From: an uncultured Gammaproteobacteria bacterium
GTDB taxonomy: Bacteria; Patescibacteriota; Microgenomatia; Levybacterales; UBA12049
Direction: 5' to 3'
NCBI GenBank assembly: GCA_964553245.1
Contig: CAZKJM010000001.1
Coordinates: 447,555 to 511,554 of the forward strand
DNA length: 64,000 nt
A program made the translations under genes and the position numbers. Below, in pieces: positions 1,953 to 53,459 of this stretch. Within the stretch, counting starts at the first letter, position 1. The number at the start of each line of letters is the position of its first letter. A model generated the notes under the pieces. That model was given only the letters and a program-made list of their open reading frames with translations. It had not been told where the DNA came from and did not search any database.

Positions 1953-3877
1953 AGATTAGTTGGCGTGGTTGGGTTTCCTGTCTGTATTGGTTGTTGATCA
2001 GGAGTTATTTCCGGATTTAATTGTTGGGGAGTTTTGGCAAGCGGTGCTTCATCCGTTGGTTTTTCGCTTGATTCCGTTTCTGCCTGTTTTTGCATTTTTT
2101 CAAGCTCTTGAGGATTAGATGTAATTAGCGTGTGCTCAAAAGGAGCAGCAATTACTTTTATAGCAACGTGACTTTGTCCTGCAAAAAATAATCCTTCACC
2201 GATGTCTGCGGAAAGCAACAACTCCTTTTCTCCTTGAGAAAGATAAAATATTTGAGCAATATGGTCAATTTCGGTAGTGCTTTGCTTTAAAAGCACTTGA
2301 ATTGATGAATTGGATAAAACAGCTTTCCCGTAGTCTGTTGATAAAAAGTCCTGAACATCCTGCGTTGCTGTGGTAAGCGCAAGATAATATTTTCTTGATC
2401 TTTTGGCTATTCCATAAACAAACGAAGCTGAATCCTGATATTTCATTATGTACCAAGCTTCATCTAAGATAAGCAATCTCTTTTTAAGATTCTTTTTAAC
2501 TTTTGTCCAAACAAAGTCCAAAATTATATGCATTGCAACCGGTCTTAATTCTTCCTCCAGGGTTTTAATATTAAATACGGTAAAAGGATTCTTTATGTCA
2601 AAGTTAGATTGTTGATTAAATATGCCATTTAAGCTTCCTTTAATGAATTTTTCAAGTCTTAAGGCAAGTTCTCTTGCGGCAGGATCTTCCATTCCCAAAA
2701 GTACTTTGTATAAGTCCTCCATAAGTGGAGGTTGTTTTTTTTGAGTTGAAGGATCTGCGGTAATTCCTTTTTGTCTGTATGTTTCTACCAGAGCTCTATC
2801 AAGTATCGCGTCGTGGGCAGGATCAAGATTGCCCATAATTATTCTTAGCAAGCCGTGAAGAGATAATATTTTTAAGCCGAGTTCGTTTTCCCCTTCTTCG
2901 TAAAGACCAGAAAGATCAAAAGGATTAATTTTTACCGGCTCAGACGGAGTAAAAGAAACATGCTCCCCTCCTAATGTTTTTGTCAGCGCTTCGTATTCTC
3001 CTTCCGGATCAATAATTATTACTTCTGTGCCAAACATAAATTGTCGCATCGCTTCAAGCTTAATAAGATATGATTTTCCGGAACCTGATTTACCAAAAAC
3101 TACTTCATTTGCATTTTCCAGTGTGTATCGATCAAAAATAACTAGTGAACCGTTTTGTTCGTTGATGCCATACATTACTCCGCGATCCTGCGTTAAAGTA
3201 GCAGAGGTAAACGGAAAGGTAGAAGCAAGAGAAGTTGTGTCCATGTTTCTGGTTATGAATAATCTGTCTTGACCAATTGGAATTGTTGACTTAAACCCGT
3301 CTTCCATCTGAAGGGTAGCGGTTTTAGTAATCATCATAATGGAATTAAGTATTGAGTTTAGTCTTTTTGATGCTTCGCTAAGATCATCAAGATTATCCGA
3401 AGATAAAGTTATATACAAACTGAACTGGAAAAATCTTTCAACTCCTTTTGCAAGTTGCTCTTGTATTTCCAGTGCGTCATCAAGTGCTGCTCTTACTTTT
3501 GGATCAACAACTTTTCCCTCCTCGATTTCGGAGGAAATAGTCGCTTCCATTTCGGCAATTTTTCTTCTTAAATCTGCCAGAACATCGGAGGCAGAGGTTG
3601 GGTAAATAAACATTGATACATTCATTGAATGGTCAAAGTCAATTAAAGGCTGTAGCCAGTTTGGAGAAACATAACGTGGGTATCCTACTACAAAAAACGT
3701 ACGATAGTATAAATCTCCAACGCGGATATATTTAAAATCTACTTCAACCGATGGGGGAGCAATTACATCAACTAAAGAAACCATTCCTTTTTCAAGCTTT
3801 TTAATACCGGGACCTTTTGTGTTTTGCTGAACAGGGATTATTGGTTGTTGTTTTGTTTTCTTGCCAAATATTTTCAT
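1949..3877 (-). CDS. virB4: Type IV secretion ATPase, VirB4/TrbE/TraC family
   Basis: Walker A (VVFGKSGSGKSYLIKL) and the family-typical Walker B (LLILDEAWYIMK) are present. Length is 642 aa. Pilin and VirB6-like genes lie upstream in the same orientation. Confidence 0.85.
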   Translation of the reverse strand: MKIFGKKTKQQPIIPVQQNTKGPGIKKLEKGMVSLVDVIAPPSVEVDFKYIRVGDLYYRTFFVVGYPRYVSPNWLQPLIDFDHSMNVSMFIYPTSASDVLADLRRKIAEMEATISSEIEEGKVVDPKVRAALDDALEIQEQLAKGVERFFQFSLYITLSSDNLDDLSEASKRLNSILNSIMMITKTATLQMEDGFKSTIPIGQDRLFITRNMDTTSLASTFPFTSATLTQDRGVMYGINEQNGSLVIFDRYTLENANEVVFGKSGSGKSYLIKLEAMRQFMFGTEVIIIDPEGEYEALTKTLGGEHVSFTPSEPVKINPFDLSGLYEEGENELGLKILSLHGLLRIIMGNLDPAHDAILDRALVETYRQKGITADPSTQKKQPPLMEDLYKVLLGMEDPAARELALRLEKFIKGSLNGIFNQQSNFDIKNPFTVFNIKTLEEELRPVAMHIILDFVWTKVKKNLKKRLLILDEAWYIMKYQDSASFVYGIAKRSRKYYLALTTATQDVQDFLSTDYGKAVLSNSSIQVLLKQSTTEIDHIAQIFYLSQGEKELLLSADIGEGLFFAGQSHVAIKVIAAPFEHTLITSNPQELEKMQKQAETESSEKPTDEAPLAKTPQQLNPEITPDQQPIQTGNPTTPTNL

Positions 3878-4542
3878 TTTTCTTCCTTTCTTACAATAGC
3901 TGTTTTTATATTTTCGGTTATCTGGTTTGTTTCGATATGGGCATCGTTATAAAGCTCGTAATAAAGTTTAACCAATTCCTCTTTTTCTAGCGTTTTTGCT
4001 CCAAGGCTAAGCCTTGCGAGTTGAGCGTGAATCGTATCAAGCTTTGTATGCAAAGATGCTTTTGCCTCTTCGATAAAAGAGTTTTTCCCCGACTGTTTTT
4101 TTACCGTTGCATTTGCAGCTACGGTTGCAGCTCCTTTTTCAAGATACGAATAGGGTATGCAGATATAAAAATTTTTGTCCAGCACGATATTTACTTTAAC
4201 CAATTCCTGCACAAAATCTCTATACAATTTAATTTGACTTGCTAGCATTTCGTTTTGGGTATTTTTGGCTTCGTTGTCTAATAGTTTTAAGTATGAGCTA
4301 ATATCTAGCTTTTTACTCCTAATAATAATTTCTATTGGAAAAGAAAGTGAGTTTAGAAGCGACGCGTAGGAATATATTTTTGTATTTTGCTCTTCAAGCG
4401 ATAAAAGCGCAAAATTTGTCGCTCTAACTTCAATAATAGAACAGGCACTATTTCCGGACAGAAGAACAATATCGTCAATAATATCAATAATTTCCGTAAA
4501 TTTTTGAGTTGTTGAGTGTATTTTTTGGGCAGAATCTTTCAT
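3874..4542 (-). CDS. Hypothetical soluble protein within the T4SS-like operon
   Basis: 222-aa ORF with a 4-nt overlap to virB4 and 3 nt from the upstream gene. No TM segment or recognisable motif. Confidence 0.5.
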   Translation of the reverse strand: MKDSAQKIHSTTQKFTEIIDIIDDIVLLSGNSACSIIEVRATNFALLSLEEQNTKIYSYASLLNSLSFPIEIIIRSKKLDISSYLKLLDNEAKNTQNEMLASQIKLYRDFVQELVKVNIVLDKNFYICIPYSYLEKGAATVAANATVKKQSGKNSFIEEAKASLHTKLDTIHAQLARLSLGAKTLEKEELVKLYYELYNDAHIETNQITENIKTAIVRKEEK

Positions 4543-4545
4543 ATA

Positions 4546-5811
4546 TTAATTACCGAATAAACTTTTTCTTAATTCTTCTCGCTCATCAATAGAAATTACT
4601 TCAATCGGCAAGATTATTTCTCCGGTTGCCTGAAATTCAACAGAATCGAATCTATGTTTTTTTTCCGGATCCTCAAAGTCAATGGTGTATATGCCGTTGG
4701 ACAAAGGAGTTGCTGATGCAAATTGCCCAAGCGGGTTAGTCTTAAAAGCCCGGACTGGGTTTCCTTCCTCGTCTTTTACCTCAACTAAAATATTCGGTAG
4801 AGGATTGTTTCTTGAGTCTTTTATAATACCTGTTAAAACATTTGGAAAATCAGTAGAAATAGGAAGTCCTACGCTTTTGCCCATTTCTTTTGGAATGCTT
4901 CTAACATGTTTAGTTTGTTTTATTTGCGGCTCAGGGATCGCCATGCTTGGGGTGTAAACTTTTTTATTTTGTACCTCAAGTTTTTTTTGAAGTTCCAATA
5001 ATTGATTTTCTAATTGTTGTTTTTGAAGCATAGTTTCATTTAAGATCTTTTCAAGTTCAGTTACTTTTTGGTGCGCTGCCTCATACTCTTTGGATCCTGT
5101 TTTCTCCGAAACTTCTTTTTGCTTTGCTTCCTCAAGTTGTTTTTGAAGAATTACAGCTTCTTTCTGAAGCTCTTCTTCTTTTTCTTCCGGTTCTTCTTTA
5201 GCTTCTTTGGTTGGCATATCAACCGGTTTTGGTGGTTCCACTACAGTTTTTAAATTGTTTTTGCCAAAAATTGCAGCAAATGGATTAGGAAGAGAAAAAG
5301 AGCTGTCATCTTGCAGGGTCTTGGCTTGAATTATTGGGTTAGAAATATTATTCAAGGTTTGCAAAAATGATATTTCTTTTTCGTCCAATTTATTTTTAGG
5401 AGTTTTTGGTAGCGAGGATAAAAATGACTTGAGCTTTTCTTCCGAAATTGCGGGTTGAACAGGAGAGTGAGCCATTATTGCGCCTTGTTTTAATGTCCCA
5501 AACTCGGGAAAATAAAGATCTGCTCCGTTTTTTTGATAAACAAATTGAGTTGGGTTAAAAAGTGCCTTTGAAAAATTGCCAATCATTACATCCAATGGTC
5601 TTCCCTCTATTGGCAAAAAAGCAAAGCTTGCTCCGATTCCGGCTACTACAAGCGCAATCGGAAGTTTTATCAAAAGCAAAAACGGCATAGCAGTAATAAT
5701 CCAACCTAAAATTACGCCTGTTGCAAGATATGCAAACTGTTTGACAGTCATATTGCCGATTAGTTTAAACTGAAAGCCTGTTATATCTTGAGGAATAGGG
5801 TGATTTTCCAT
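4546..5811 (-). CDS. T4SS-associated membrane protein. The N-terminal two-TM module (VirB3/PrgI-like?) is followed by a long coiled coil (EEKEEELQKEAVILQKQLEEAKQ…) and a C-terminal beta-sandwich-like domain.
   Basis: The N-terminus (TGFQFKLIGNMTVKQFAYLATGVILGWIITAMPF…) carries two predicted TM helices and is placed immediately upstream of virB4, as VirB3/PrgI is. Coiled-coil heptads are visible. The C-terminal region (PNILVEVKDEEGNPVRAFKTNPLGQFASATPLSNGIYTIDFE) resembles a carboxypeptidase-regulatory-like/Ig-like fold. Confidence 0.45.
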   Translation of the reverse strand: MENHPIPQDITGFQFKLIGNMTVKQFAYLATGVILGWIITAMPFLLLIKLPIALVVAGIGASFAFLPIEGRPLDVMIGNFSKALFNPTQFVYQKNGADLYFPEFGTLKQGAIMAHSPVQPAISEEKLKSFLSSLPKTPKNKLDEKEISFLQTLNNISNPIIQAKTLQDDSSFSLPNPFAAIFGKNNLKTVVEPPKPVDMPTKEAKEEPEEKEEELQKEAVILQKQLEEAKQKEVSEKTGSKEYEAAHQKVTELEKILNETMLQKQQLENQLLELQKKLEVQNKKVYTPSMAIPEPQIKQTKHVRSIPKEMGKSVGLPISTDFPNVLTGIIKDSRNNPLPNILVEVKDEEGNPVRAFKTNPLGQFASATPLSNGIYTIDFEDPEKKHRFDSVEFQATGEIILPIEVISIDEREELRKSLFGN

Positions 5812-5958
5812 ATAAAACTACTGTATAACGTGAAAAATTTGCTTTCAAGATTATCAAACTAGGTCAAACAACAATTAAAATGTATCTAAAAACCGTGAAA
5901 AATGCAATATAGAAAAACAATAATAATTTATGTAATTATTTCTTTTAGAAAAAGAGGA

Positions 5959-6342
5959 TTAGGAACAGTTATTAAACCCAAAATAATTAATACATTCGGC
6001 TCCTGTTATATAGGCGATAATTTTTATTATTAAAAAAGATAAAAAGATTACCAATAAGCCGATAATTGCATAGGTTAAAGTTTTTTTTGCTTGATCAATT
6101 TTCTTTTGATCTCCGCCTGATGTTATAAAGCTGATTCCGGATAAAATAACAAAAATTAAGGCAACACTTCCCGATAAAATCAAGAGCCAATTAACAACTT
6201 GACCAAATACAACCGGAAGGCATTGAAGAGTTGCAACTCCGTCTACCATACAGTTTGACCAAGAAGCTCCGCCTGAAGTTCCTCCTGTGGAGCCGGTTCC
6301 AGGATCAGCTTTGGCGATAAGGTTAATAAAAGTTGCCAACAT
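5959..6342 (-). CDS. VirB2/TrbC-like T4SS pilin, paralogue 1
   Basis: 127 aa with two hydrophobic helices separated by the short polar loop TSGGDQKKIDQAKKTLTYA, shared with the neighbouring paralogues. It has Cys pairs near the N-terminal (SNCMVDGVATLQC) and C-terminal (AECINYFGFNNC) ends. Confidence 0.6.
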   Translation of the reverse strand: MLATFINLIAKADPGTGSTGGTSGGASWSNCMVDGVATLQCLPVVFGQVVNWLLILSGSVALIFVILSGISFITSGGDQKKIDQAKKTLTYAIIGLLVIFLSFLIIKIIAYITGAECINYFGFNNCS

Positions 6343-6386
6343 AAAGATAGATTAACAAAAGAAATATTAATTTACAATACGCTTTG

Positions 6387-6779
6387 TTATAAAGTCGGGA
6401 GTTCTAGATTATTGATGCTTGGGAGACCAAATACACTTAGTATAATGCTTATTATTAAGTAAGAAAGAAATACTACGATTAATCCAATAATAGCAGCTAC
6501 TATATGACTTCTTGCTGCTTCTACTTTTCCTTTATCTCCACCGGATGTGACCCATCTGATACCACCATATATTAAGTATCCAAGAGCAGCAACAATTGCT
6601 AATATAAATGCGGTATTAATTATTACACCGATTATTTTTCCAAAATCTCCAGCTTTAAGCTCGCATAGAGTTTGAGATATTCCTCCACCTTCGCAAAGAT
6701 TAATGGTCTCTGCAAACGCAAATGGAGCCAGTGTTAAATAGGTTGCTGCTGAGGTAATAATTCCTACAGTTTTTTTCAT
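6387..6779 (-). CDS. VirB2/TrbC-like T4SS pilin, paralogue 2
   Basis: Signal-peptide-like N-terminus (MKKTVGIITSAATYLTLAPFAFA), then TM1, loop (TSGGDKGKVEAARSH) and TM2. This is the classic VirB2 topology. Confidence 0.65.
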   Translation of the reverse strand: MKKTVGIITSAATYLTLAPFAFAETINLCEGGGISQTLCELKAGDFGKIIGVIINTAFILAIVAALGYLIYGGIRWVTSGGDKGKVEAARSHIVAAIIGLIVVFLSYLIISIILSVFGLPSINNLELPTL

Positions 6780-6824
6780 TTATAATTTAATGCTAGTATT
6801 AAATTCCTGTCTTGTCAAGTACTT

Positions 6825-7139
6825 TTATATAAAATTATTAATTCCGAATAGTCCTCCGATAATATTTACAATTAAATACGCTAATAAAACAACTACCAAC
6901 CCGGCTACGGCATAAAATAATTTTTTTCTTGCTGCTTGCAATTTTTGTTTATCGCCCTCTGATGTCATCCACTGAAATCCTCCGTAGATTAAAAAGCCTA
7001 AAGCCAGAATAATAGCAACTATATATAATATATTTACTCCGACACCGATAATTTTTTCAAGAGTACCTGCTCCACCGGTTGGAATTCCTTGTGGTCCTGT
7101 AATCTCTTGTCCTGCAATATTTAAAACGATCTCCTTCAT
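6825..7139 (-). CDS. VirB2/TrbC-like T4SS pilin, paralogue 3
   Basis: 104 aa with TM1, loop MTSEGDKQKLQAARKKL and TM2, the same motif as paralogues 1 and 2. Only 3 nt separate it from the upstream gene. Confidence 0.6.
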   Translation of the reverse strand: MKEIVLNIAGQEITGPQGIPTGGAGTLEKIIGVGVNILYIVAIILALGFLIYGGFQWMTSEGDKQKLQAARKKLFYAVAGLVVVLLAYLIVNIIGGLFGINNFI

Positions 7140-7142
7140 AAA

Positions 7143-8336
7143 TCAGCTGAATCCGGGTATTTTTAAAATATCAACACCAATTACCTGAAGTATAACAAGG
7201 GAAAAGATTATAAACAATAATCCAACAATAGCTGCTGTTAAAGACTCTTTTGCTCCCTGCATTTTTTCCGGGTTTCCTCTTGCCAAAATAATTTTGTAAC
7301 CAGATAGAATGATTAAGATTAATGCAATTCCCCCGGAAAGACTTAAAAGGACACCGAATAAAGATTTAATAAAAGACGCTGCATCTGTTCCTAATGTTAT
7401 TCCAAGCCCAGTATCTATGGATAAACATTTTCCGCCATCTCCCAACTCTGAACAATGCGCAGTAATCGGAGGAAGATTATCAAAAAGGTTATCAATAAAT
7501 ACTTTCCCCTCATTGCTTTCTTCTCCTAAAACATTTAGAACGATCCAGTCTTTATTATTGCCTTCAAAAACATATATAGTTTGATCTCCAATTGCCTTAT
7601 CTGGAACCTTAAGTTCTATTTTACATTCAGGCTCATCTAGACATTGCCTTAAATTGTCCGATCCGCCCTGGAACCTGTATTTATAAGTCCCGCTTTTGTT
7701 GTTATGGATTGTCAATGTAACTGTCTCTCCAGGATTTGCTTTTGAAGGATCGATTGACAACGTGAATGGAGCATTATGTTCTTGATCTAAATAAAAAGTT
7801 CTATAGGTCTCGACATGTTCTTTTTGTTTATTGGTTGCATAAAGTCTATAGACAGCGCCTCCTGTTCCAAAAATATCAAATTTTTCCACTTTAAATTGCG
7901 CTTTAATTTTCCAATTTTTCCCCCCATCATTACTAAAACAAGATTGTTGAACAAATGATGATCCTTGATGAGATAGGTCGCATGTTGAAGACTTTCTGTT
8001 AATTTTATACTCCAATTTCCATTCATGTTTTGAAGATTTAAAAACATTACTGGTTGATTCATTCTCTACCAAAATTAAGAGTTGATATTCTTCATCTGGT
8101 TTTGGCGCTGGTAATTGTCCCCCTCTTGAGTAATAAAGTGTTGTTTGAGTTTGAGCAGTGCTTACTTCTCCCCAAATAGCATCAGAAATATCTAGTTCAA
8201 CGTTTATAATGTCACCGTTTTTTACATTAGTTTTATCAATCGTTAGCGCAACTCCGCTTGCATGAACAGGGTTTTTAAAAAACAGGAAAAAAATTAAGAT
8301 TAAGATTGAAAATAGAATTCTTTTCAGGACAGGCAT
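7143..8336 (-). CDS. Pilin-fusion protein. After a signal peptide, a ~300-aa extracellular domain is fused to a C-terminal VirB2-like pilin module.
   Basis: The N-terminal signal is MPVLKRILFSILILIFFLFFKNPVHA. The Cys-containing extracellular region is beta-rich. The C-terminal 70 aa (…ILSGYKIILARGNPEKMQGAKESLTAAIVGLLFIIFSLVILQ…) repeat the TM-loop-TM motif of the three small pilins. Confidence 0.55.
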   Translation of the reverse strand: MPVLKRILFSILILIFFLFFKNPVHASGVALTIDKTNVKNGDIINVELDISDAIWGEVSTAQTQTTLYYSRGGQLPAPKPDEEYQLLILVENESTSNVFKSSKHEWKLEYKINRKSSTCDLSHQGSSFVQQSCFSNDGGKNWKIKAQFKVEKFDIFGTGGAVYRLYATNKQKEHVETYRTFYLDQEHNAPFTLSIDPSKANPGETVTLTIHNNKSGTYKYRFQGGSDNLRQCLDEPECKIELKVPDKAIGDQTIYVFEGNNKDWIVLNVLGEESNEGKVFIDNLFDNLPPITAHCSELGDGGKCLSIDTGLGITLGTDAASFIKSLFGVLLSLSGGIALILIILSGYKIILARGNPEKMQGAKESLTAAIVGLLFIIFSLVILQVIGVDILKIPGFS

Positions 8337-14228: not shown

Positions 14229-14315
14229 GGAGGGATCGCATAGAGGCCTAGTGCGTTCGCTTGGAGAGCGGATGTCGTCGTGAGATGACCGGGAGTTCGA
14301 ATCTCCCTCCCTCCG
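14229..14315 (+). tRNA. tRNA-Ser(GGA), type II with long variable arm
   Basis: Acceptor GGAGGGA/TCCCTCC, 3-bp D-stem, anticodon stem TTCGC/GCGGA with loop TTGGAGA, an 18-nt variable arm and T-arm GGGAG-TTCGAAT-CTCCC. The track ORF at 14102-14374 is an artefact over it. Confidence 0.8.
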
Positions 14316-14390
14316 CCTTCACCCGCCGAAGCCAGAATGGCGAAGGCGGGCTTCGATCGGGTTTCAGCGGACACAGTCCGCCATAATGAG

Positions 14391-14819
14391 TTATGAGTTA
14401 TGAGTTATGAGTTGTTTTGCTTCCTCCCAAACCTTTTTATCTGATTTGTAAGTTAATTTTTTTTCCACTTTTTCCACAGAAAGCCATTCAACGCTTTCCA
14501 TTTCTTTATCTTTTAAGCTTAAATCCTCAGTTAAATATTCCATTAAAAAATAATAAACGGTTTTCTTGATTTTTTGTTTTTCAAAAACATACCAATACTC
14601 AACCGGATTTAATGATTTTAGAATTTTGGCGTTAATACCTGTTTCTTCCAAAACTTCTCTTATTGCTGTGTCTTCTTTTTTTTCTTTTTCAATCTTATCT
14701 CCGATTAATCCCTTTGGAAAAACCCAGCCGTGATGTTGTGAATGCTGGCACACTAGAATTAAAAGTTTATTTTTTTCTTTTTTAAAGACTATGCCACCGG
14801 CAGAAAATTCAAATTTCAT
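14391..14819 (-). CDS. NUDIX hydrolase
   Basis: Nudix box GX5EX7REVLEETGI present (…KGLIGDKIEKEKKEDTAIREVLEETGINAKI). Overlaps the upstream GIY-YIG gene by 4 nt (ATGA). Confidence 0.7.
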   Translation of the reverse strand: MKFEFSAGGIVFKKEKNKLLILVCQHSQHHGWVFPKGLIGDKIEKEKKEDTAIREVLEETGINAKILKSLNPVEYWYVFEKQKIKKTVYYFLMEYLTEDLSLKDKEMESVEWLSVEKVEKKLTYKSDKKVWEEAKQLITHNS

Positions 14820-15058
14820 AATGGAAATAAATGTTTTTTTAAGAAAGCCCTTCCAGAACCAGATTTAAGGTATTTCTCAAAATTAAAAGCGGTATATTTA
14901 TCTATGAACGCAAAATAAGAGATCAGTCTTATTGGACGTAGTAATTTAGTTGCAGGTACATGTCCTTTTTTATGCCTTTCTATTCTTTCTTCCAAATTGC
15001 TTGTACAACCCGTATATGGTTTGCCGTTTTTACATTTTAAAAAATATACAAAAAACAT
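14816..15058 (-). CDS. Small stand-alone GIY-YIG domain protein (~80 aa)
   Basis: The GIY-YIG-like motif is MFFVYFLKCKNGKPYTGCTSNLEERIERHKKG. The track ORF (14816-15259) is over-extended across two tRNA genes. The real start is probably the Met at 15058, with AAGGAG 9 nt upstream. Confidence 0.6.
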   Translation of the reverse strand: MFFVYFLKCKNGKPYTGCTSNLEERIERHKKGHVPATKLLRPIRLISYFAFIDKYTAFNFEKYLKSGSGRAFLKKHLFPL

Positions 15059-15122
15059 ACTAATTTCTCCTTCGCGAACTACTAAGCGGATGTTATCCGC
15101 CGTAGCTCGCTTCGGCGAGCGA

Positions 15123-15212
15123 TGGCGGAGGAGAGAGGATTCGAACCTCTGTGAGCCGTAAAGCCCGCTCGGTTTTCGAGACCGGCCAAATAAACCACTC
15201 TTGCACTCCTCC
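15123..15212 (-). tRNA. tRNA-Ser(CGA), type II
   Basis: Reverse complement gives acceptor GGAGGAG/CTCCTCC, 3-bp D-stem CAA/TTG, anticodon loop CTCGAAA (one C·A mismatch at the stem top), a long variable arm, T-arm AGAGG-TTCGAAT-CCTCT and an encoded CCA. Confidence 0.65.
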
Positions 15213-15217
15213 ATAAG

Positions 15218-15290
15218 CGCTCTTGGGGAGAATCGAACTCCCAGCCTAAGCGTCCGCAACGCTTCGCTCTATCCGTTGAGCTACAAGAGC
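15218..15290 (-). tRNA. tRNA-Arg(GCG)
   Basis: Reverse complement GCTCTTG-TA-GCTC-AACGGATA-GAGC-G-AAGCG-TTGCGGA-CGCTT-AGGCT-GGGAG-TTCGATT-CTCCC-CAAGAGC-G. Every stem pairs perfectly and the anticodon is GCG. Confidence 0.75.
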
Positions 15291-15297
15291 CCGTTAC

Positions 15298-15346
15298 CGC
15301 TTCGCTCTATCCGTTGACCCCGATTAAATCGGGGTTGAACTACAGG
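15298..15346 (-). repeat. Truncated 5' copy of tRNA-Arg (5' acceptor strand, D-arm and 5' anticodon stem) interrupted by a 17-nt hairpin, upstream of the intact tRNA-Arg
   Basis: The 19-nt stretch gcttcgctctatccgttga occurs at 15261-15279 and again at 15299-15317. The second copy is followed by ccccgattaaatcgggg flanked by a ttga duplication, then actacagg, which is the D-stem region. It ends exactly at the anticodon stem/loop boundary. Confidence 0.55.
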
Positions 15347-15361
15347 CACAGATTAGCAAGT

Positions 15362-16062: not shown

Positions 16063-16152
16063 TGGCGGAGAGGGTGGGATTCGAACCCACGTTCACCAAT
16101 TGGCGAAAGCGGTTTTCAAGACCGCCGCACTAGGCCTCTATGCGACCTCTCC
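16063..16152 (-). tRNA. tRNA-Ser(TGA), type II
   Basis: Reverse complement gives GGAGAGG…, D-stem GCA/TGC, anticodon stem GCGGT/ACCGC with loop CTTGAAA, a long variable arm, T-arm and an encoded CCA. Confidence 0.8.
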
Positions 16153-16157
16153 TAGGG

Positions 16158-16247
16158 CGGAGGAGGTGAGATTCGAACTCACGCGAGCTTATTCAGCTCA
16201 GGGGGTTAGCAACCCCCCGCAATGGACCGTGCTATGCGACTCCTCCT
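16158..16247 (-). tRNA. tRNA-Ser(GCT), type II
   Basis: Reverse complement gives GGAGGAG-TC-GCA…, anticodon stem GGGGG/CCCCC with loop TTGCTAA, a long variable arm and T-arm GTGAG-TTCGAAT-CTCAC. The track ORF 16049-16267 is an artefact over the two tRNAs. Confidence 0.8.
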
Positions 16248-16265
16248 TTTTAGCAATTAGCCAAT

Positions 16266-16279
16266 AGTATATAGCAAAT
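16266..16279 (-). promoter_or_regulatory. Putative extended -10 promoter for the tRNA-Ser(GCT)-tRNA-Ser(TGA) pair
   Basis: Same 14-mer as at 15362-15375. It reads TGCTATATACT on the - strand about 20 nt upstream of the tRNA 5' end. Confidence 0.4.
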
Positions 16280-16324
16280 GGTTAATATAGCTTTGGATAT
16301 TATAACATTTGGAAGCTTAACTTA

Positions 16325-16888
16325 CTATTCAGTTTTGTAAAAATAGACCTTTGCCGGGGTGTGTTCAAAAGAACACATTTCATCATTTGTTAAATGTTCA
16401 AAATATTTCCTCATTGGTCTAAGCGAATTACCGTGAGCAGAAATAAAAATTACATCATTCTTTTTCCAAGTCGGAATCTCTTCATTTAAAAATGACAATA
16501 CTCTTTTTTCAACGTCCTTTATGCATTCGCCTTCAGGCGGGGCAATATCGTAGGACCTATGCCATAAAGCATAGTTTCTTGGATCAGAATTAGAAATATC
16601 GTCTTTATTAAGCCCTGTTAGATTTCCGTAGTCTCTTTCTTTAATTCTAGGATCTTCTAAGATTTCTACATTTTTATGATAATTACTTAAAACTAGTTCT
16701 AGCGTATGTTTTGAGCGGATTTGGTCAGAAGTATAAGCTTTATTTACAGAGATGTCTTTTAATTCATCTCCTATTTTTTTTGCCTCTTCTTCTCCTTCTA
16801 AGGTTAAGTCAACGTCTCTAAAGCCCGAAAAAATATGGTTTTTATTATCTGTTGTTTGTCCATGACGAAAAATGTAAATCTTAGCCAT
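16325..16888 (-). CDS. Histidine phosphatase family protein (phosphoglycerate-mutase-like)
   Basis: N-terminal RHGQT motif (IYIFRHGQTTDN) and internal SAHGNSLR, both typical of the family. Confidence 0.7.
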   Translation of the reverse strand: MAKIYIFRHGQTTDNKNHIFSGFRDVDLTLEGEEEAKKIGDELKDISVNKAYTSDQIRSKHTLELVLSNYHKNVEILEDPRIKERDYGNLTGLNKDDISNSDPRNYALWHRSYDIAPPEGECIKDVEKRVLSFLNEEIPTWKKNDVIFISAHGNSLRPMRKYFEHLTNDEMCSFEHTPAKVYFYKTE

Positions 16889-43057: not shown

Positions 43058-45427
43058 ATGATAGAAGCTCTCACCATGGAAAATTTAGTTCCATCATTAA
43101 TATTATTTGGAGCTTATGCTTTAGCAATAACGGTTTTAGTATTTTTCATAGCGTTTGTAGCCTACTCGTTGTTTATTTTATATAAAAACAGAAATAGGGA
43201 AAAAGATGCGCTTAATTCAACGCTTCTTCAGGTTTCACTAACCAGAGATAATGAGGTTAAAATTGATGCTGCAGAACAGCTTTTTGCATCTTTAGCATCG
43301 GTCAGAAAAGGAGGAAAATTAAGTTTTTTAAAACCTCAACCCCATTTTTCTTTTGAGATTGTCGGAATACCCGGGGACATCAGTTTTTATATTTATACCC
43401 CGAATAAACTAAAGGATTTAATCGAGAAGCAAATAAATGGTGCTTATCCAGAAGCGGAAATAAAAGTTGTTGATGAAAAAACGCAAAAAGAGGGATATGT
43501 AATCGGTAATGAATATAATATTTTCTCCAAAGAAGGAAAAGTTGCCTTTACTTCCCTTAAGCTTAAAACTTCAAATTATTATCCAATAAAAGTTTTTAAA
43601 GATTTACCTGTTGATCCTTTGTCTTCTATTACATCAGTCTTGGCAAAAATGACCGAAGGAGAAGGAGCTGCAATTCAAGTTTTATTTAGTCCGGTAGATG
43701 GAAAATGGAAAAAAATGGGAAGGGGATATATTTCCCGAACTAAAAAAGGAGAGGCAAATCCGGAAACGGCTAAATATTCGGCAGACTCTAAAGAGCTGGA
43801 AGCAGTAGAAAACAAAATATCAAAAACGGGTTTTGATACGGTTATAAGAATTGTAGTTTCCTCAAGCACAAAAGAAGCTGCAAGTGCTCATCTTAGCAAT
43901 ATTATAACCAGCTTTGGCCAGTTTAACGGAATAAACTCTTTTACTAAAAATAAACATAGGCTTAAAGGTTTGTTTATGAATGATTTTATTTACCGTTTTA
44001 TGCCAATGTATGGTCAGACTTCGGTGTTGTCGAATGAAGAACTGGCAACGGTTTTCCATTTTCCGAACAAATCGGTAACAACGCCTCATATTCATTGGCT
44101 AAATTCCAAAAGGGCACCAGCTCCTGCACAAATACCTGATAACGGTCTTTTTTTGGGAAGAAGTACTTATAGAGGCTTGTCAAAGCCGGTTTACATGCAA
44201 AGAGACGATAGAAGACGCCATATGTACGTTATTGGAAAAACCGGTGTTGGAAAATCCGAGTTTTTAAAAGATATGATTTTGCAGGATATTAGAAATGGAG
44301 AAGGGGTTTGTTTTATAGATCCTCACGATACAATTGATAAATTACTTCCTCTGATTCCGCCGGAGCGTGCAGAAGACGTAATCCTTTTTGAGCCTTCGGA
44401 TACAGATAGACCAATGGGGCTAAATATGTTAGAAGCACAAACAGAAGACCAGAAACATTATGTTGTTTCGTCGATAATAGGCCTTATGTATAAACTTTAT
44501 GATCCAAATAAAACCGGAATTATCGGACCAAGGTTTGAGCACGCAATAAGAAATGCAATGCTAACAGTAATGTCAGAACCGGGAAATACTTTTGTAGAAG
44601 TAGTAAGGGCTTTAACAGATTCCAGTTTTGTAGAAGAATTATTGCCAAAAGTACAGGATCCAATGGTAAGAAGATATTGGACAGATCAAATTGCTCAAAC
44701 ATCGGATTTTCATAAATCAGAAGTTTTAGATTATATTGTTTCTAAGTTCAGTAGATTCGTAAGCAATAAAATGATGAGAAACATTATTGGTCAGTCTGAA
44801 TCTGCTTTTAATTTTAGAAAAGTAATGGATGAGGGTAAAATTCTTTTAATTTCTTTATCAAAAGGAAGAATTGGGGAAGAGAATTCAAGCTTTTTAGGAC
44901 TCGTTTTAGTGCCAAAGATTTTAGTTGCCGCAATGAGCAGGCAGGATATTCCGGAAGAAAAAAGAAGGGACTTTTATTTATACGTTGATGAGTTTCAAAA
45001 TTTTGCAACGCCTGATTTTGCCCAAATACTTTCAGAGGCAAGAAAATACAGGCTTAATTTAACGGTTGCTAACCAGTTTATCGGTCAAATGGACGAGGAG
45101 GTAAAAAACGCAATTTTTGGAAACGTTGGTTCTCTTGTTTCATTTAGAGTTGGTGTAACAGATGCTAATTATCTTCAACATGAATTCCAACCTGTATTTA
45201 CAGAAGCAGATCTTATTAATGTAGACAGGTTTAATGCTTATATAAAAACGGTTGTCGGTGGAGAACCTGTTTTGCCTTTTTCAATTGATCTAACTCGTGA
45301 TATGACAAAAGAAAAACAGACCGAAAATCCAAGAGTAGCAGAATTAATTCGTGAGCTTTCAAGATTAAAATATGGTCACGATGTTACCACCGTAGAGCAG
45401 CAAATTGCCCAAAGGGCAAGATTGTAA
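43058..45427 (+). CDS. Type IV coupling protein-like ATPase (VirD4/TraG/TraD family)
   Basis: N-terminal TM anchor, Walker A (YVIGKTGVGKSEF), Walker B (FYLYVDEFQNF) and the family-typical segment ARKYRLNLTVANQFIGQMDEE… Length is 789 aa. Confidence 0.6.
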   Translation: MIEALTMENLVPSLILFGAYALAITVLVFFIAFVAYSLFILYKNRNREKDALNSTLLQVSLTRDNEVKIDAAEQLFASLASVRKGGKLSFLKPQPHFSFEIVGIPGDISFYIYTPNKLKDLIEKQINGAYPEAEIKVVDEKTQKEGYVIGNEYNIFSKEGKVAFTSLKLKTSNYYPIKVFKDLPVDPLSSITSVLAKMTEGEGAAIQVLFSPVDGKWKKMGRGYISRTKKGEANPETAKYSADSKELEAVENKISKTGFDTVIRIVVSSSTKEAASAHLSNIITSFGQFNGINSFTKNKHRLKGLFMNDFIYRFMPMYGQTSVLSNEELATVFHFPNKSVTTPHIHWLNSKRAPAPAQIPDNGLFLGRSTYRGLSKPVYMQRDDRRRHMYVIGKTGVGKSEFLKDMILQDIRNGEGVCFIDPHDTIDKLLPLIPPERAEDVILFEPSDTDRPMGLNMLEAQTEDQKHYVVSSIIGLMYKLYDPNKTGIIGPRFEHAIRNAMLTVMSEPGNTFVEVVRALTDSSFVEELLPKVQDPMVRRYWTDQIAQTSDFHKSEVLDYIVSKFSRFVSNKMMRNIIGQSESAFNFRKVMDEGKILLISLSKGRIGEENSSFLGLVLVPKILVAAMSRQDIPEEKRRDFYLYVDEFQNFATPDFAQILSEARKYRLNLTVANQFIGQMDEEVKNAIFGNVGSLVSFRVGVTDANYLQHEFQPVFTEADLINVDRFNAYIKTVVGGEPVLPFSIDLTRDMTKEKQTENPRVAELIRELSRLKYGHDVTTVEQQIAQRARL

Positions 45428-45488: not shown

Positions 45489-45560
45489 GCGTCTGTAGCT
45501 CAGTGGCAGAGCGCTACTCTTATAAAGTAGATGTCCTTGGTTCGAACCCAAGCAGACGCA
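45489..45560 (+). tRNA. tRNA-Ile(TAT)
   Basis: GCGTCTG-TA-GCTC-AGTGGCA-GAGC-G-CTACT-CTTATAA-AGTAG-ATGTC-CTTGG-TTCGAAC-CCAAG-CAGACGC-A. Every stem pairs perfectly and the anticodon is UAU. Confidence 0.75.
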
Positions 45561-45563
45561 CAA

Positions 45564-46424
45564 TTAAAGCTCTGAGAGGATGTTTGTTTCTTTGCCGCGT
45601 TCTGGTACGTATTGAAGATATCTTTCGGTTGTAGAAAGCCTTTTATGACCCAAGAGCTTAGAAAGCATTACTAAAGAAACACCGTGTTTTAAATGATGTG
45701 CAACAAAAGTGTGTCTTAAATCATTTACTTTTGCCCCTTTAATTTCTGCTAATCTAAAGTATCTTTCGACCGCAGTCCTAATGTTTCTGATTAAAAATGG
45801 TTTTCCGGATTTAGTTATAAACAAAGTGTTTTCGGTTGCCTTTGGTCTTACTTCTAAATATTTTTCCAAAGCGTCTTTTGCTCTTTTATTAAGCGGCACT
45901 GTTCTTTCTTCGTGTTTTTCAAAAGGTGCAATATGAAGACTATCCTTTTGCATATCAGATAATGTTAAAGCTGCTAATTCTCCGATTCTAATTCCGGTTT
46001 GAAGCAATAATTCGATTACCGCATACATTCTTGCGTCATTTCTTGCAGCGTCTCTTAATGCTCTATACTCGGTTGGGGTAAGGATTCTGGGTGGAGCAAG
46101 TTGGTAGGTTGGGTGAGTAATTAAAAGCGATGGATCATCGGTTATATATTCACTGATTTTTAAAAACCTATAAAAAGTTCTGGTTGAGTTTATTTTTCTA
46201 GAGACCGATTTTGGCGTATAACCATCTTTATTCATTTTTGCCAAAAATGCTTCCAAATCTTCTTTTTTAACATCGTGAACTTGAGCTTTTTGAAGCTCTT
46301 CTAGAAAACCGACAAGCTGGTCAATGTCTTTACCGTAGGCAATAACAGTTGAGTTTGAATGCTTGTTATCCTTTAAATATTTTTTAAACTGTTCGTGGGC
46401 ATCGCGAAGTTTAACTGGTTTCAT
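45564..46424 (-). CDS. Tyrosine recombinase (XerC/XerD-like)
   Basis: Catalytic R…HxxR…Y region (LRHTFVAHHLKHGVSLVMLSKLLGHKRLSTTERYLQ) and an N-terminal SAM-like core-binding domain. It ends 3 nt from the tRNA-Ile 3' end. Confidence 0.8.
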   Translation of the reverse strand: MKPVKLRDAHEQFKKYLKDNKHSNSTVIAYGKDIDQLVGFLEELQKAQVHDVKKEDLEAFLAKMNKDGYTPKSVSRKINSTRTFYRFLKISEYITDDPSLLITHPTYQLAPPRILTPTEYRALRDAARNDARMYAVIELLLQTGIRIGELAALTLSDMQKDSLHIAPFEKHEERTVPLNKRAKDALEKYLEVRPKATENTLFITKSGKPFLIRNIRTAVERYFRLAEIKGAKVNDLRHTFVAHHLKHGVSLVMLSKLLGHKRLSTTERYLQYVPERGKETNILSEL

Positions 46425-46873: not shown

Positions 46874-47659
46874 ATGTTGAAACAAAGAGAAATAATTAAG
46901 AGGGCAGCATTGGAGGCTGGAAAAATAATTTTGGCAACTAAGCCAACGGAAAATGTAAAGGAAAAAGCAGGAAGGGCGAATCTAGTTACAGAAGCGGATC
47001 TTAAAAGCGAAAATGCAATAGTTGAGCTTATAAATCAACACTTTCCCGAAGACTTAATATTGTCAGAAGAAACAAAAAGTAACATCCCAAATCCATTATT
47101 AGCAGAAAAGCTCTGGGTTGTGGACCCAATTGACGGAACAAATAATTTTAGATACGAAAGAAATTATTCTTGTGTTTCAATTGCCTATGCGGAAAAAGGC
47201 GTAGTGCAATTAGGGGTAGTTTATGATCCGTTTAGAGATGAAATGTTTTATGCAGAAAAAATGCAGGGAGCATTTTTAAACGGAAAAAAGATTTTTGTCT
47301 CCAAGTTAAAAGATTTAGCAAGGTCAGTGGTAGCCAGTGATAATTCTTACGAGTCCGAAGGAACCAAGTATAACCTTGAGTTATTTTTAAAATTAAATCC
47401 AGCGCCTTGGTTTTTGATAAAAGGAAGCGCCACTTTAACAATGTGCGAAGTTGCTGCCGGTAGAATTGATCTCTATTTTCACAATTATTTAAAACCATGG
47501 GATAATGCGGCAGCGTTTTTAATAGTTGAGGAAGCAGGCGGAGTAGTAAGAGGTATTAGCGGTAATAATGCAAATTTTATGTCGGAAAGCGTAATTTGTG
47601 GAAACGAAGAACTTGTAAAAAACTTTGTTGCGGGGCTAGGAGTTGCGCCTAGCCTGTGA
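46874..47659 (+). CDS. Inositol monophosphatase family protein (SuhB-like)
   Basis: Signature WVVDPIDGTNNF and the metal-binding EE motif. Confidence 0.75.
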   Translation: MLKQREIIKRAALEAGKIILATKPTENVKEKAGRANLVTEADLKSENAIVELINQHFPEDLILSEETKSNIPNPLLAEKLWVVDPIDGTNNFRYERNYSCVSIAYAEKGVVQLGVVYDPFRDEMFYAEKMQGAFLNGKKIFVSKLKDLARSVVASDNSYESEGTKYNLELFLKLNPAPWFLIKGSATLTMCEVAAGRIDLYFHNYLKPWDNAAAFLIVEEAGGVVRGISGNNANFMSESVICGNEELVKNFVAGLGVAPSL

Positions 47660-47708
47660 GATTATGAGCCTCACGTGCACTGTACACTACCCCGCACGTA
47701 AAGCACAT

Positions 47709-47757: not shown

Positions 47758-47831
47758 GCCAGGGTAGCTCAGTCGGTTAGAGCACAGCATTCATAACGCT
47801 GAGGTCGTGGGTTCGATCCCCACCTCTGGTA
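47758..47831 (+). tRNA. tRNA with CAT anticodon (elongator Met or Ile2; not initiator-like)
   Basis: GCCAGGG-TA-GCTC-AGTCGGTTA-GAGC-A-CAGCA-TTCATAA-CGCTG-AGGTC-GTGGG-TTCGATC-CCCAC-CTCTGGT-A. The acceptor has two G·U pairs. It lacks the three G:C anticodon-stem pairs of initiator tRNA. Confidence 0.65.
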
Positions 47832-47879
47832 CACATTCGACTCGCTTCACTCGCTCAGTGCAAGCACCAGTTATTCATT

Positions 47880-48668: not shown

Positions 48669-52339
<3,671 letters not shown>

Positions 52340-52389: not shown

Positions 52390-52941
52390 GTGAAGGAAAG
52401 ATATAGCGAGGAAAGATCAGAAAAAAGAACAGTAGTCGTGCATTTATTATTTTCTAAAACTCCAGAACCAGAAGTTTATCGCGCTTCATTAAAAAACGGA
52501 GAAGACCCCTCAGCTTATGCTTTAAATATTCTTGGCAAAGATGGAGCCTATGGTTATAAAATTGGAGATCTTTATTCAGGAACAATAATTCTTGATGGTA
52601 AGACGAGGGCTTATCAGACAACAGAGCAAATGGAGCCAGGTATAGTTTATGTTGACGCGGAAAAATTTTCCGTTGAAGATTCAAGGAAAGCATTAAGGGA
52701 ATTAGAAGAAGAATTTGCTTTTGAAAACGAAGGTAATATCTATGCAACAAAAACAATAGACAAAGACCCTGGATATAAATTGGAATATTTAACATTAAGT
52801 GAATCATTGAAAAATGTTCTTCGTCTTAGGGAAAGAGCGGGAGATGAATTTGTGGAGCCGGAATTAGTAAGAGCAAGAGATGGATCATGGCATATTTTGG
52901 GAACAAAGGATAAAATGGTAAAGTCTAAAGATAAAAGATAA
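52390..52941 (+). CDS. Hypothetical protein (183 aa; apparent GTG start)
   Basis: ORF directly downstream of the consensus promoter. No recognised domain. Confidence 0.4.
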   Translation: MKERYSEERSEKRTVVVHLLFSKTPEPEVYRASLKNGEDPSAYALNILGKDGAYGYKIGDLYSGTIILDGKTRAYQTTEQMEPGIVYVDAEKFSVEDSRKALRELEEEFAFENEGNIYATKTIDKDPGYKLEYLTLSESLKNVLRLRERAGDEFVEPELVRARDGSWHILGTKDKMVKSKDKR

Positions 52942-52967
52942 ATTTTTCAAAATACCACTTAAGTTAT

Positions 52968-53459
52968 ATGGAGAGATTTTTAAGCCCACGAAGACCAAGA
53001 GAAGAAGCCGTAAAACAGTGGCAAACAATACAAGTCTTAGAAGAAATTACTTTTGGTAAAAAGAGTTTTTTTCGGACAAGAGTTAATTCTAAACTTTCTA
53101 ATCAAGGGATAGCAAGTGAGGTTATAGAAATCAGCAGACGAGCATATGGATTTGTAAAAATTGACAGTAGAGATCCAGAAACCGAAGATGCGAATCCAAA
53201 AATTAATTATATTGACGCACGCTTTTTTACTATGGAAGAAACTCTCCGTTTTCCACCAAAATTTGAACGTTCTTTAAAAAAGAAAGAATATTTAAGCTTA
53301 ATGTATGCAATGAGCGAATATATGACGATGCTTGCAGTGAGCGAATGCAAAAATGAAAACGAAATAAAAAAACCAAGAGGGATAATTAGAAGAAGAGATG
53401 GATTATTTACGGTTTTAAAAAATGGGGATAGAATTATTTCGACGACTCAAAAAAACTAG
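52968..53459 (+). CDS. Hypothetical protein (163 aa)
   Basis: ORF with coding-like composition and no recognised domain. Confidence 0.4.
   Translation: MERFLSPRRPREEAVKQWQTIQVLEEITFGKKSFFRTRVNSKLSNQGIASEVIEISRRAYGFVKIDSRDPETEDANPKINYIDARFFTMEETLRFPPKFERSLKKKEYLSLMYAMSEYMTMLAVSECKNENEIKKPRGIIRRRDGLFTVLKNGDRIISTTQKN

Follow-up and report, generated by a model that had tools for sequence, protein, structure and literature searches.

The window, by which we mean the whole 64-kb stretch of DNA that was analysed, was searched for tRNA genes with ARAGORN and with the Rfam model RF00005 (gathering score 29). Eight tRNA genes were identified by ARAGORN, including a tRNA-Ile with the anticodon UAU and a tRNA-Arg with the anticodon GCG, which the original prediction had singled out as a non-canonical decoding set. 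The tRNA genes and three protein-coding genes referred to below are as follows.

14229–14317, plus strand: tRNA-Ser(GGA), part of the Ser/Arg cluster (ARAGORN, Rfam)
15123–15212, minus strand: tRNA-Ser(CGA), 4 nt downstream of tRNA-Arg(GCG) (ARAGORN, Rfam)
15217–15290, minus strand: tRNA-Arg, anticodon GCG, predicted to read CGC and CGU codons (ARAGORN)
16063–16152, minus strand: tRNA-Ser(UGA) (ARAGORN, Rfam)
16156–16246, minus strand: tRNA-Ser(GCU) (ARAGORN, Rfam)
43058–45427, plus strand: T4SS coupling-protein-like ATPase (DUF8128/TraD-like; Pfam, NCBIfam), conserved upstream neighbour of tRNA-Ile(UAU)
45489–45561, plus strand: tRNA-Ile, anticodon UAU (TAT), predicted AUA decoder (ARAGORN)
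45564–46424, minus strand: XerC/XerD-like tyrosine recombinase (Pfam; NCBIfam XerC/XerD/XerA, E-values 1e-49 to 1e-43), conserved downstream neighbour of tRNA-Ile(UAU)
47627–47696, minus strand: tRNA with anticodon CAU, initiator type (ARAGORN only), with the acceptor UGCGGGG/CCCCGCA, A73 and an atypical T-loop, CGCAACU
47758–47832, plus strand: tRNA with anticodon CAU, elongator type (ARAGORN; Rfam, 64.9 bits)
50119–51303, plus strand: tRNA guanosine(34) transglycosylase Tgt (Pfam TGT, E-value 6e-144; NCBIfam TIGR00430, 489.6 bits, cut-off 306.75)

Full-length matches to RF00005 were obtained for both tRNAs of interest, at positions 45489–45560 for tRNA-Ile(UAU) (72.6 bits, E-value 6e-14) and at positions 15218–15290 for tRNA-Arg(GCG) (67.7 bits, E-value 1.3e-12), which is far above chance level. 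Read by eye, each of them folds into a canonical cloverleaf. The tRNA-Ile(UAU) has the acceptor stem GCGUCUG/CAGACGC with A73, and an anticodon loop, CUUAUAA, that includes A37 and A38. The acceptor stem of tRNA-Arg(GCG) is GCUCUUG/CAAGAGC with G73, its anticodon loop is UUGCGGA with C35, G36 and G37, and it contains the Arg identity elements A20 (in the D-loop), C35 and G36. The CCA end is encoded in neither gene. The original prediction of a well-formed tRNA-Ile(UAU) and of a tRNA-Arg(GCG) was thereby upheld, and the folding program assigned the same anticodons, TAT and GCG, to the two genes.

The window has a G+C content of 34% and encodes tmRNA and SmpB, four T4SS-pilin genes, PrgI, a VirB4/TraG-like ATPase, DUF5667 and two class A penicillin-binding proteins, along with enzymes of lower glycolysis, NrdR, a ribonucleotide reductase (RNR), Tgt, TrpRS and FtsH. 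This gene content is typical of Patescibacteria/CPR; the T4SS-like cluster at 1949–8336 on the minus strand, in which a VirB4/TraG P-loop ATPase and a PrgI-family protein accompany the four genes with T4SS-pilin domains, is likewise typical for Patescibacteria. The closest named homologues of FtsH were from "Candidatus Levybacteria" and "Patescibacteria group bacterium" (75–78% identity), and the initiator-type tRNA at 47627–47696 belongs to the same family as Microgenomatia tRNAs in the supplementary tables of PMC13011429. On the strength of the CPR-type gene set, the FtsH homologues and the initiator-type tRNA family, we assign the host to a Levybacteria-like lineage of the class Microgenomatia within the Patescibacteria/CPR. 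A pair of paralogous ORFs (183 and 163 amino acids) without Pfam matches is located between trpS and ftsH (52390–53459, plus strand). Since ftsH directly follows trpS in four related loci (L126, L127, L251 and L252), this segment of ca. 1.1 kb is a strain-specific insertion.

The tRNA-Ile(UAU) gene is flanked by the gene for the T4SS coupling protein (T4CP) on one side and by the xer recombinase gene followed by divIC on the other. A tRNA-Ile(TAT) was found at the same site in two relatives, L127 (GCA_964523705.1; FtsH 83% identical) and L252 (FtsH 75% identical), and tRNA-Ile(UAU) was also present in a third, L124. We searched metagenome contigs with the anticodon arm of tRNA-Ile(UAU) as the pattern, leaving position 34 free, and obtained at least 120 matches. 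Among the matches listed, 79 had a T at position 34 and 41 a G; C did not occur there. In about 57 of the listed T34 loci, the tRNA adjoins homologues of T4CP and/or Xer and/or DivIC, with identities in the metagenome loci of 58–90% for T4CP (tblastn) and 43–85% for Xer. The 41 loci with G34 share the anticodon stem and have GGGCCC-type acceptors, an encoded CCA end and different genomic contexts, so that these tRNAs look unrelated to tRNA-Ile(UAU).

Across 36 distinct copies of tRNA-Ile(UAU), 99.9% of the stem cells were paired, compensatory changes were seen in 12 of the 21 base pairs (118 cells changed on both sides), and none of 500 shuffles equalled the observed covariation. The anticodon stem was preset by the search pattern, and its constancy therefore carries no weight; the signal comes from the acceptor and T stems. 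Taken together, these patterns identify tRNA-Ile(UAU) as an AUA decoder that is functional, inherited vertically and common to a large clade.

The positions of the neighbouring genes raise the question of whether tRNA-Ile(UAU) is carried by an integrative element or serves as its insertion site, as the gene of the Phage_integrase family ends only 3 nt past the tRNA and the gene for the TraD/VirD4-like ATPase stops 61 nt short of it. We consider such an origin very improbable. The recombinase is of the XerC/XerD/XerA type, and the order T4CP, tRNA, xer (and divIC) was retained in about 57 of the listed contigs, as well as in L127 and L252, even where the identity had fallen to 43% for Xer and to about 60% for T4CP. 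The flanking genes are housekeeping genes (RNR, MurD, Tgt, TrpRS, FtsH), and T4SS-like genes are normal constituents of Patescibacteria chromosomes (10.1101/2025.01.22.634366). The Xer-like scores and the arrangement kept in the ca. 57 contigs also ruled out that the gene at 45564–46424 is a prophage integrase.

Codon usage, which the original prediction had proposed as a check, showed that AUA is heavily used in the ORFs of the window, with 534 of 1606 Ile codons (33%) and 2.8% of all codons. In an alignment of 110 FtsH homologues, the ATA positions of ftsH corresponded to I (38%), L and V, not to M, whereas the ATG positions corresponded to M in 80% of the cases. Because ATA and ATG differ in this manner, the alignment indicates that AUA codes for Ile in the host. 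These results bear on the idea that the anticodons were mis-called, that the genes are pseudogenes or that AUA has been reassigned, for example to Met. Some encouragement for it might be drawn from BLAST comparisons of tRNA-Ile(UAU) with annotated phage tRNAs, which gave matches of mixed isotypes (Asn, Lys, Thr, Ile, Met), so that the Ile isotype rests on the anticodon. ARAGORN and Rfam agree independently, however, the compensatory covariation of tRNA-Ile(UAU) is strong, the ATA positions do not match Met, and A73, A37 and A38 are compatible with Ile identity. An artefact or an altered code can hence be given hardly any credence.

The tRNA-Arg(GCG) gene is part of a cluster with the order Ser(GCU), Ser(UGA), Arg(GCG), Ser(CGA), Ser(GGA), which is retained in a strain-level relative (L001). 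The same Ser/Arg cluster was found in loci from Levyibacteriota, Woesebacteria and Collierbacteria (L059, L099, L086, L113). Adjoining tRNA-Ser genes as it does, tRNA-Arg(GCG) takes the position that tRNA-Arg(ACG) has in the cluster of textbook bacteria, for which we take serV-argV of E. coli to be the reference. No blastn match to tRNA-Arg(GCG) was obtained in E. coli. Using a degenerate pattern that describes a bacterial-type tRNA-Arg body with the anticodon GCG, we also scanned one genome per GTDB species and obtained at least 120 loci. ARAGORN confirmed Arg(GCG) in 118 of the 120 loci among the matches listed, and none of these 118 had an Arg(ACG) beside it. The listed matches came from Chloroflexota (ca. 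34), several classes of Patescibacteria (33), Actinomycetota (16), Spirochaetes (5, Treponema and Spirochaetaceae being represented), Planctomycetota (4), and from Armatimonadota, Thermotogae and others; in these 120 loci, the most common neighbours were tRNA-Ser genes.

As tRNA-Arg(GCG) occurs in Chloroflexota, Actinomycetota, Planctomycetota and Spirochaetes with large genomes as well as in CPR bacteria, it is no mark of streamlining, and G34 in tRNA-Arg appears to be widespread with no tie to genome reduction. Also relevant here is Tgt, the enzyme that modifies G34, which scores at full strength in the window, and its retention gives no indication of a general reduction of wobble modification. 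The proposal that the two tRNAs hint at a reduced modification repertoire as in streamlined lineages thus stands in one respect, that the host is a streamlined CPR bacterium, but it is weakened both by the presence of Arg(GCG) in large-genome phyla and by the retention of Tgt.

CGN codons are rare in the ORFs of the window (CGT 45, CGC 39, CGA 33, CGG 16), as compared to 476 AGA codons. Since the GCG anticodon reads only CGC and CGU, a further tRNA-Arg for CGA and CGG would be needed elsewhere in the genome; no such companion for these codons (49 in the window) was seen within the 64 kb.

Several other features were observed within and around the Ser/Arg cluster. Directly 5' of tRNA-Arg(GCG) is a stretch that resembles a 5' tRNA half (15291–15350, minus strand), consisting of GTGCCTGTAGTTCAA, followed by the hairpin CCCCGATTTAATCGGGG and then by TCAACGGATAGAGCGAAGCG. 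Its last 20 nt duplicate positions 13–32 of the intact tRNA-Arg, and the stretch is identical in L001; it could be a pseudogene or stem from a tandem duplication of part of the gene. The otherwise near-identical L001 is about 3 kb longer in the segment that corresponds to 16152–16325 of the window (2882–6025 in L001). The additional DNA encodes an ATP-grasp protein (faint Pfam matches to GSH-S_ATP, Dala_Dala_lig_C and RimK), a Mur-ligase/FolC-like protein, a hydrolase and a second tRNA-Ser(UGA), and the difference is best described as a between-strain indel inside the tRNA cluster. A small GIY-YIG-type ORF (14816–15121, minus strand), located just downstream of tRNA-Ser(CGA), showed a weak NCBIfam match to a group I intron endonuclease. 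Pfam assigned GIY-YIG to its copy in L001, and the longest-ORF version overlaps tRNA genes.

We conclude that the two tRNAs are genuine genes under purifying selection, that they are conserved throughout the clade and that they are not carried by a mobile element. Both genes represent known alternative ways of reading AUA and CGU/CGC. In a survey by Diwan and Agashe (2018; PMC6063277), TadA was found to have been lost repeatedly, with tRNA-Arg(ACG) vanishing along with the enzyme and non-target Arg tRNAs appearing, the Spirochaetes being one such clade; a tRNA-Ile(UAU) is a known TilS-independent route to AUA (PMC3575796). Published work thus lends support to the original description of the decoding set as non-canonical, with tRNA-Arg(GCG) tied to the loss of TadA and tRNA-Ile(UAU) to AUA reading without TilS.

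We searched for the two enzymes themselves. No TilS- or TadA-like ORF was found within the 64-kb window by Pfam searches of 55 ORFs, motif scans, tblastn with the E. coli proteins or HMM searches. No PF01171 domain, PP-loop motif or tblastn match to the E. coli TilS was obtained in the window plus 1.75 Mb of related loci, and a TadA HMM built from the E. coli protein and homologues gave no match in either the window or the CPR loci. ARAGORN identified no tRNA-Arg(ACG) in the 64 kb. There is no tilS upstream of ftsH in the window, and it is equally absent from this position in the relatives: at 75–85% FtsH identity, the TrpRS gene is located directly upstream of the FtsH gene, as it is in the window apart from the insertion. 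Because the relatives also lack tilS at this site, the ftsH neighbourhood, which was used as an argument for Mycoplasma mobile (PMC1635315), is uninformative about TilS here. Based on the published association between tRNA and enzyme and on the lack of an ACG partner in the loci surveyed, TadA is likely to be absent from the lineage. For TilS, absence is only slightly favoured.

TadA homologues were observed no more than a few kb away from the tRNA-Ser/tRNA-Arg(GCG) cluster in three contigs from Chloroflexota (L022, ca. 310–750, minus strand; L074, ca. 2985–3410, minus strand; L085, ca. 4790–5230, plus strand). Their best NCBIfam match was TadA at 98–118 bits, which is below the cut-off of 150, and they are 32–37% identical to E. 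coli TadA. The PCxMC motif is intact, and the catalytic Glu of H-A-E has been replaced (DPTAHAV or DPTAHAI). They look like catalytically dead TadA proteins beside the G34 form of the former substrate, which fits with inosine being dispensable once position 34 is G.

Of the two tRNAs with CAU anticodons, the elongator-type one is located 2.2 kb from tRNA-Ile(UAU) and may be either an elongator tRNA-Met or a tRNA-Ile2; its identity as Met or Ile2 bears on the need for TilS. In the relatives, it always adjoins the initiator-type tRNA. The family profile scored 56.8 bits against a phage tRNA-Ile(GAU), 49.8 bits against the E. coli tRNA-Met and 43.2 bits against the E. coli tRNA-Ile2, a spread of about 14 bits, and the best significant E. 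coli match of the tRNA at 47758–47832 in BLAST searches of annotated E. coli and phage tRNAs was the elongator tRNA-Met, so that the similarity results conflict. Members of this family, which includes copies in L126, L127 and the metagenome loci, have a non-Watson-Crick 31:39 pair, mostly A.C and otherwise U.G; G1.U72 is frequent, and 4 of the 21 members have U38. A38 is used by the IleRS of E. coli. The identity elements recognized by TilS differ between species (PMC12514573).

The initiator-type tRNA at 47627–47696 gave no match to the Rfam tRNA model even at E-values up to 10. It has a U1-A72 pair (C1xA72 in many relatives), a D stem of 3 bp and an anticodon stem with a single intact G:C pair of the usual three (A29-U41, G30-C40, G31.U39). 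The CGCAACU T-loop, with C54 G55 in place of T54 Psi55, is common to a subclade. Its 3' end overlaps with the last 11 codons of an inositol-monophosphatase ORF. The tRNA is retained in L126 (5482–5551, minus strand), and the homologue in L127 (4570–4850, minus strand) is split at positions 33/34 by a group I intron of 183 nt (RF00028, 81.6 bits).

The main competing explanation is that the two tRNAs are auxiliary isoacceptors in a redundant set, with the canonical tilS and tRNA-Ile2(CAU) and/or tadA and tRNA-Arg(ACG) also encoded in the genome. About 98% of bacteria have TilS (PMC6063277, PMC12514573), both tilS and tRNA-Ile(UAU) occur in Lactobacillus plantarum and L. casei (PMC3575796), the elongator-type tRNA nearby could be the Ile2 species, and our view is confined to 64 kb of the genome. 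On the other hand, redundant decoders are rarely retained in genomes this small. The scan with the tRNA-Ile(UAU) anticodon stem produced no C34 form among its listed loci, which number at least 120, and Arg(ACG) was never found beside the 118 Arg(GCG) loci listed, in line with the published association of Arg(GCG) with TadA loss (PMC6063277). The U38 residues in the CAU family and its best significant E. coli match, the elongator tRNA-Met, also count against a redundant set. We regard such a set as possible but less likely than the explanation favoured below.

We compared the decoding set to those of previously described systems. In the literature, bacterial tRNA-Ile(UAU) goes back to 2006; nine tilS-less species from three clades were on record as carriers by 2013, and 19 species were listed by 2014, along with 371 distinct metagenome sequences (PMC1635315, PMC3575796, PMC4013482). 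It was still termed rare in a preprint from 2026. The closest parallel is Mycoplasma mobile (Silva 2006, PMC1635315; Taniguchi 2013, PMC3575796), which shares with the present host a tRNA with a TAT anticodon, an AT-rich reduced genome, heavy use of AUA and an ftsH gene without an adjoining tilS. M. mobile reads AUA by an unmodified tRNA-Ile(UAU) without TilS, whereas the tilS search here covers the 64-kb window, and the M. mobile IleRS has an Arg at the position of W905 in E. coli, an adaptation to UAU. No ileS gene occurs in the window or in the related loci that were retrieved. M. mobile is a single species, in contrast to the spread of the trait over a large CPR clade at a fixed synteny. 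L. plantarum and L. casei (PMC3575796) also resemble the present host in having tRNA-Ile(UAU), here with the elongator-type CAU tRNA as a possible Ile2, but they have larger genomes and a documented tilS, as compared to none found in the 64-kb window.

With respect to tRNA-Arg, the host resembles lineages that have lost TadA, such as the Spirochaetes, in which G34 replaces A34 in the tRNA-Arg of the CGN box, and our matches in Treponema and Spirochaetaceae agree with the clade reported to have lost inosine (PMC6063277). Mollicutes without TadA differ in having a single tRNA-Arg(UCG) instead of the GCG form (Yokobori 2013, PMC3711424). A deep-sea symbiotic Spiroplasma with a tRNA profile that suggests few anticodon modifications (PMC5861454) is similar in that the anticodons are gene-encoded rather than modified, but Tgt is retained here and the comparison rests on two anticodons. 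The same two anticodon choices are seen in archaeal decoding sets. In archaea, tRNA-Arg(GCG) is standard, and Nanoarchaeum and Korarchaeum have tRNA-Ile(UAU). Unlike these, the present host is bacterial by its tmRNA and SmpB, its bacterial Tgt and its bacterial-type tRNA-Arg body (the GGAUAGAGC D-arm and the Ser/Arg cluster).

The explanation that we favour, with some reservation, is that both genes are ordinary chromosomal, vertically inherited tRNAs of a Levybacteria-like CPR host and that they spare it TilS and TadA. The tRNA-Ile(UAU) would be a dedicated reader of the abundant AUA codon, and tRNA-Arg(GCG) would read CGC, plus CGU by G:U wobble, leaving CGA and CGG to a tRNA-Arg(UCG) and/or (CCG) from elsewhere in the genome. 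With both anticodons already specified by the gene sequences, we infer that the lineage may need neither lysidine for AUA nor inosine for CGN. If TilS is absent, the IleRS must accept the UAU anticodon, and either the ribosome or competition from tRNA-Met would have to prevent misreading of AUG, as in M. mobile. The broader claim, that a class-level CPR clade (Microgenomatia) reads AUA by tRNA-Ile(UAU) without TilS and CGY by tRNA-Arg(GCG) without TadA, is more tentative, and we place it just short of an even call.

No report linking CPR bacteria to lysidine, TilS or TadA was found in our literature search. What is new here is the presence of tRNA-Ile(UAU) at one fixed locus in a class-level CPR clade; the results for tRNA-Arg(GCG) mostly confirm the published pattern of TadA loss and add to the known breadth of occurrence. 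TilS is regarded as near-universal and essential in bacteria, yet tRNA-Ile(UAU) is fixed and syntenic in a large, environmentally abundant CPR clade. If tilS is indeed missing, the number of bacteria that live without lysidine would increase considerably, and a clade that lacks both TilS and TadA would be much the largest group of bacteria to decode without lysidine and inosine. There would be consequences for annotation pipelines, for estimates of CPR genome completeness from marker genes and for proposals to target TilS with antibacterials. An "archaeal-looking" anticodon set would then be fixed in a deep bacterial lineage, which bears on the presence of lysidine and inosine in the bacterial ancestor.
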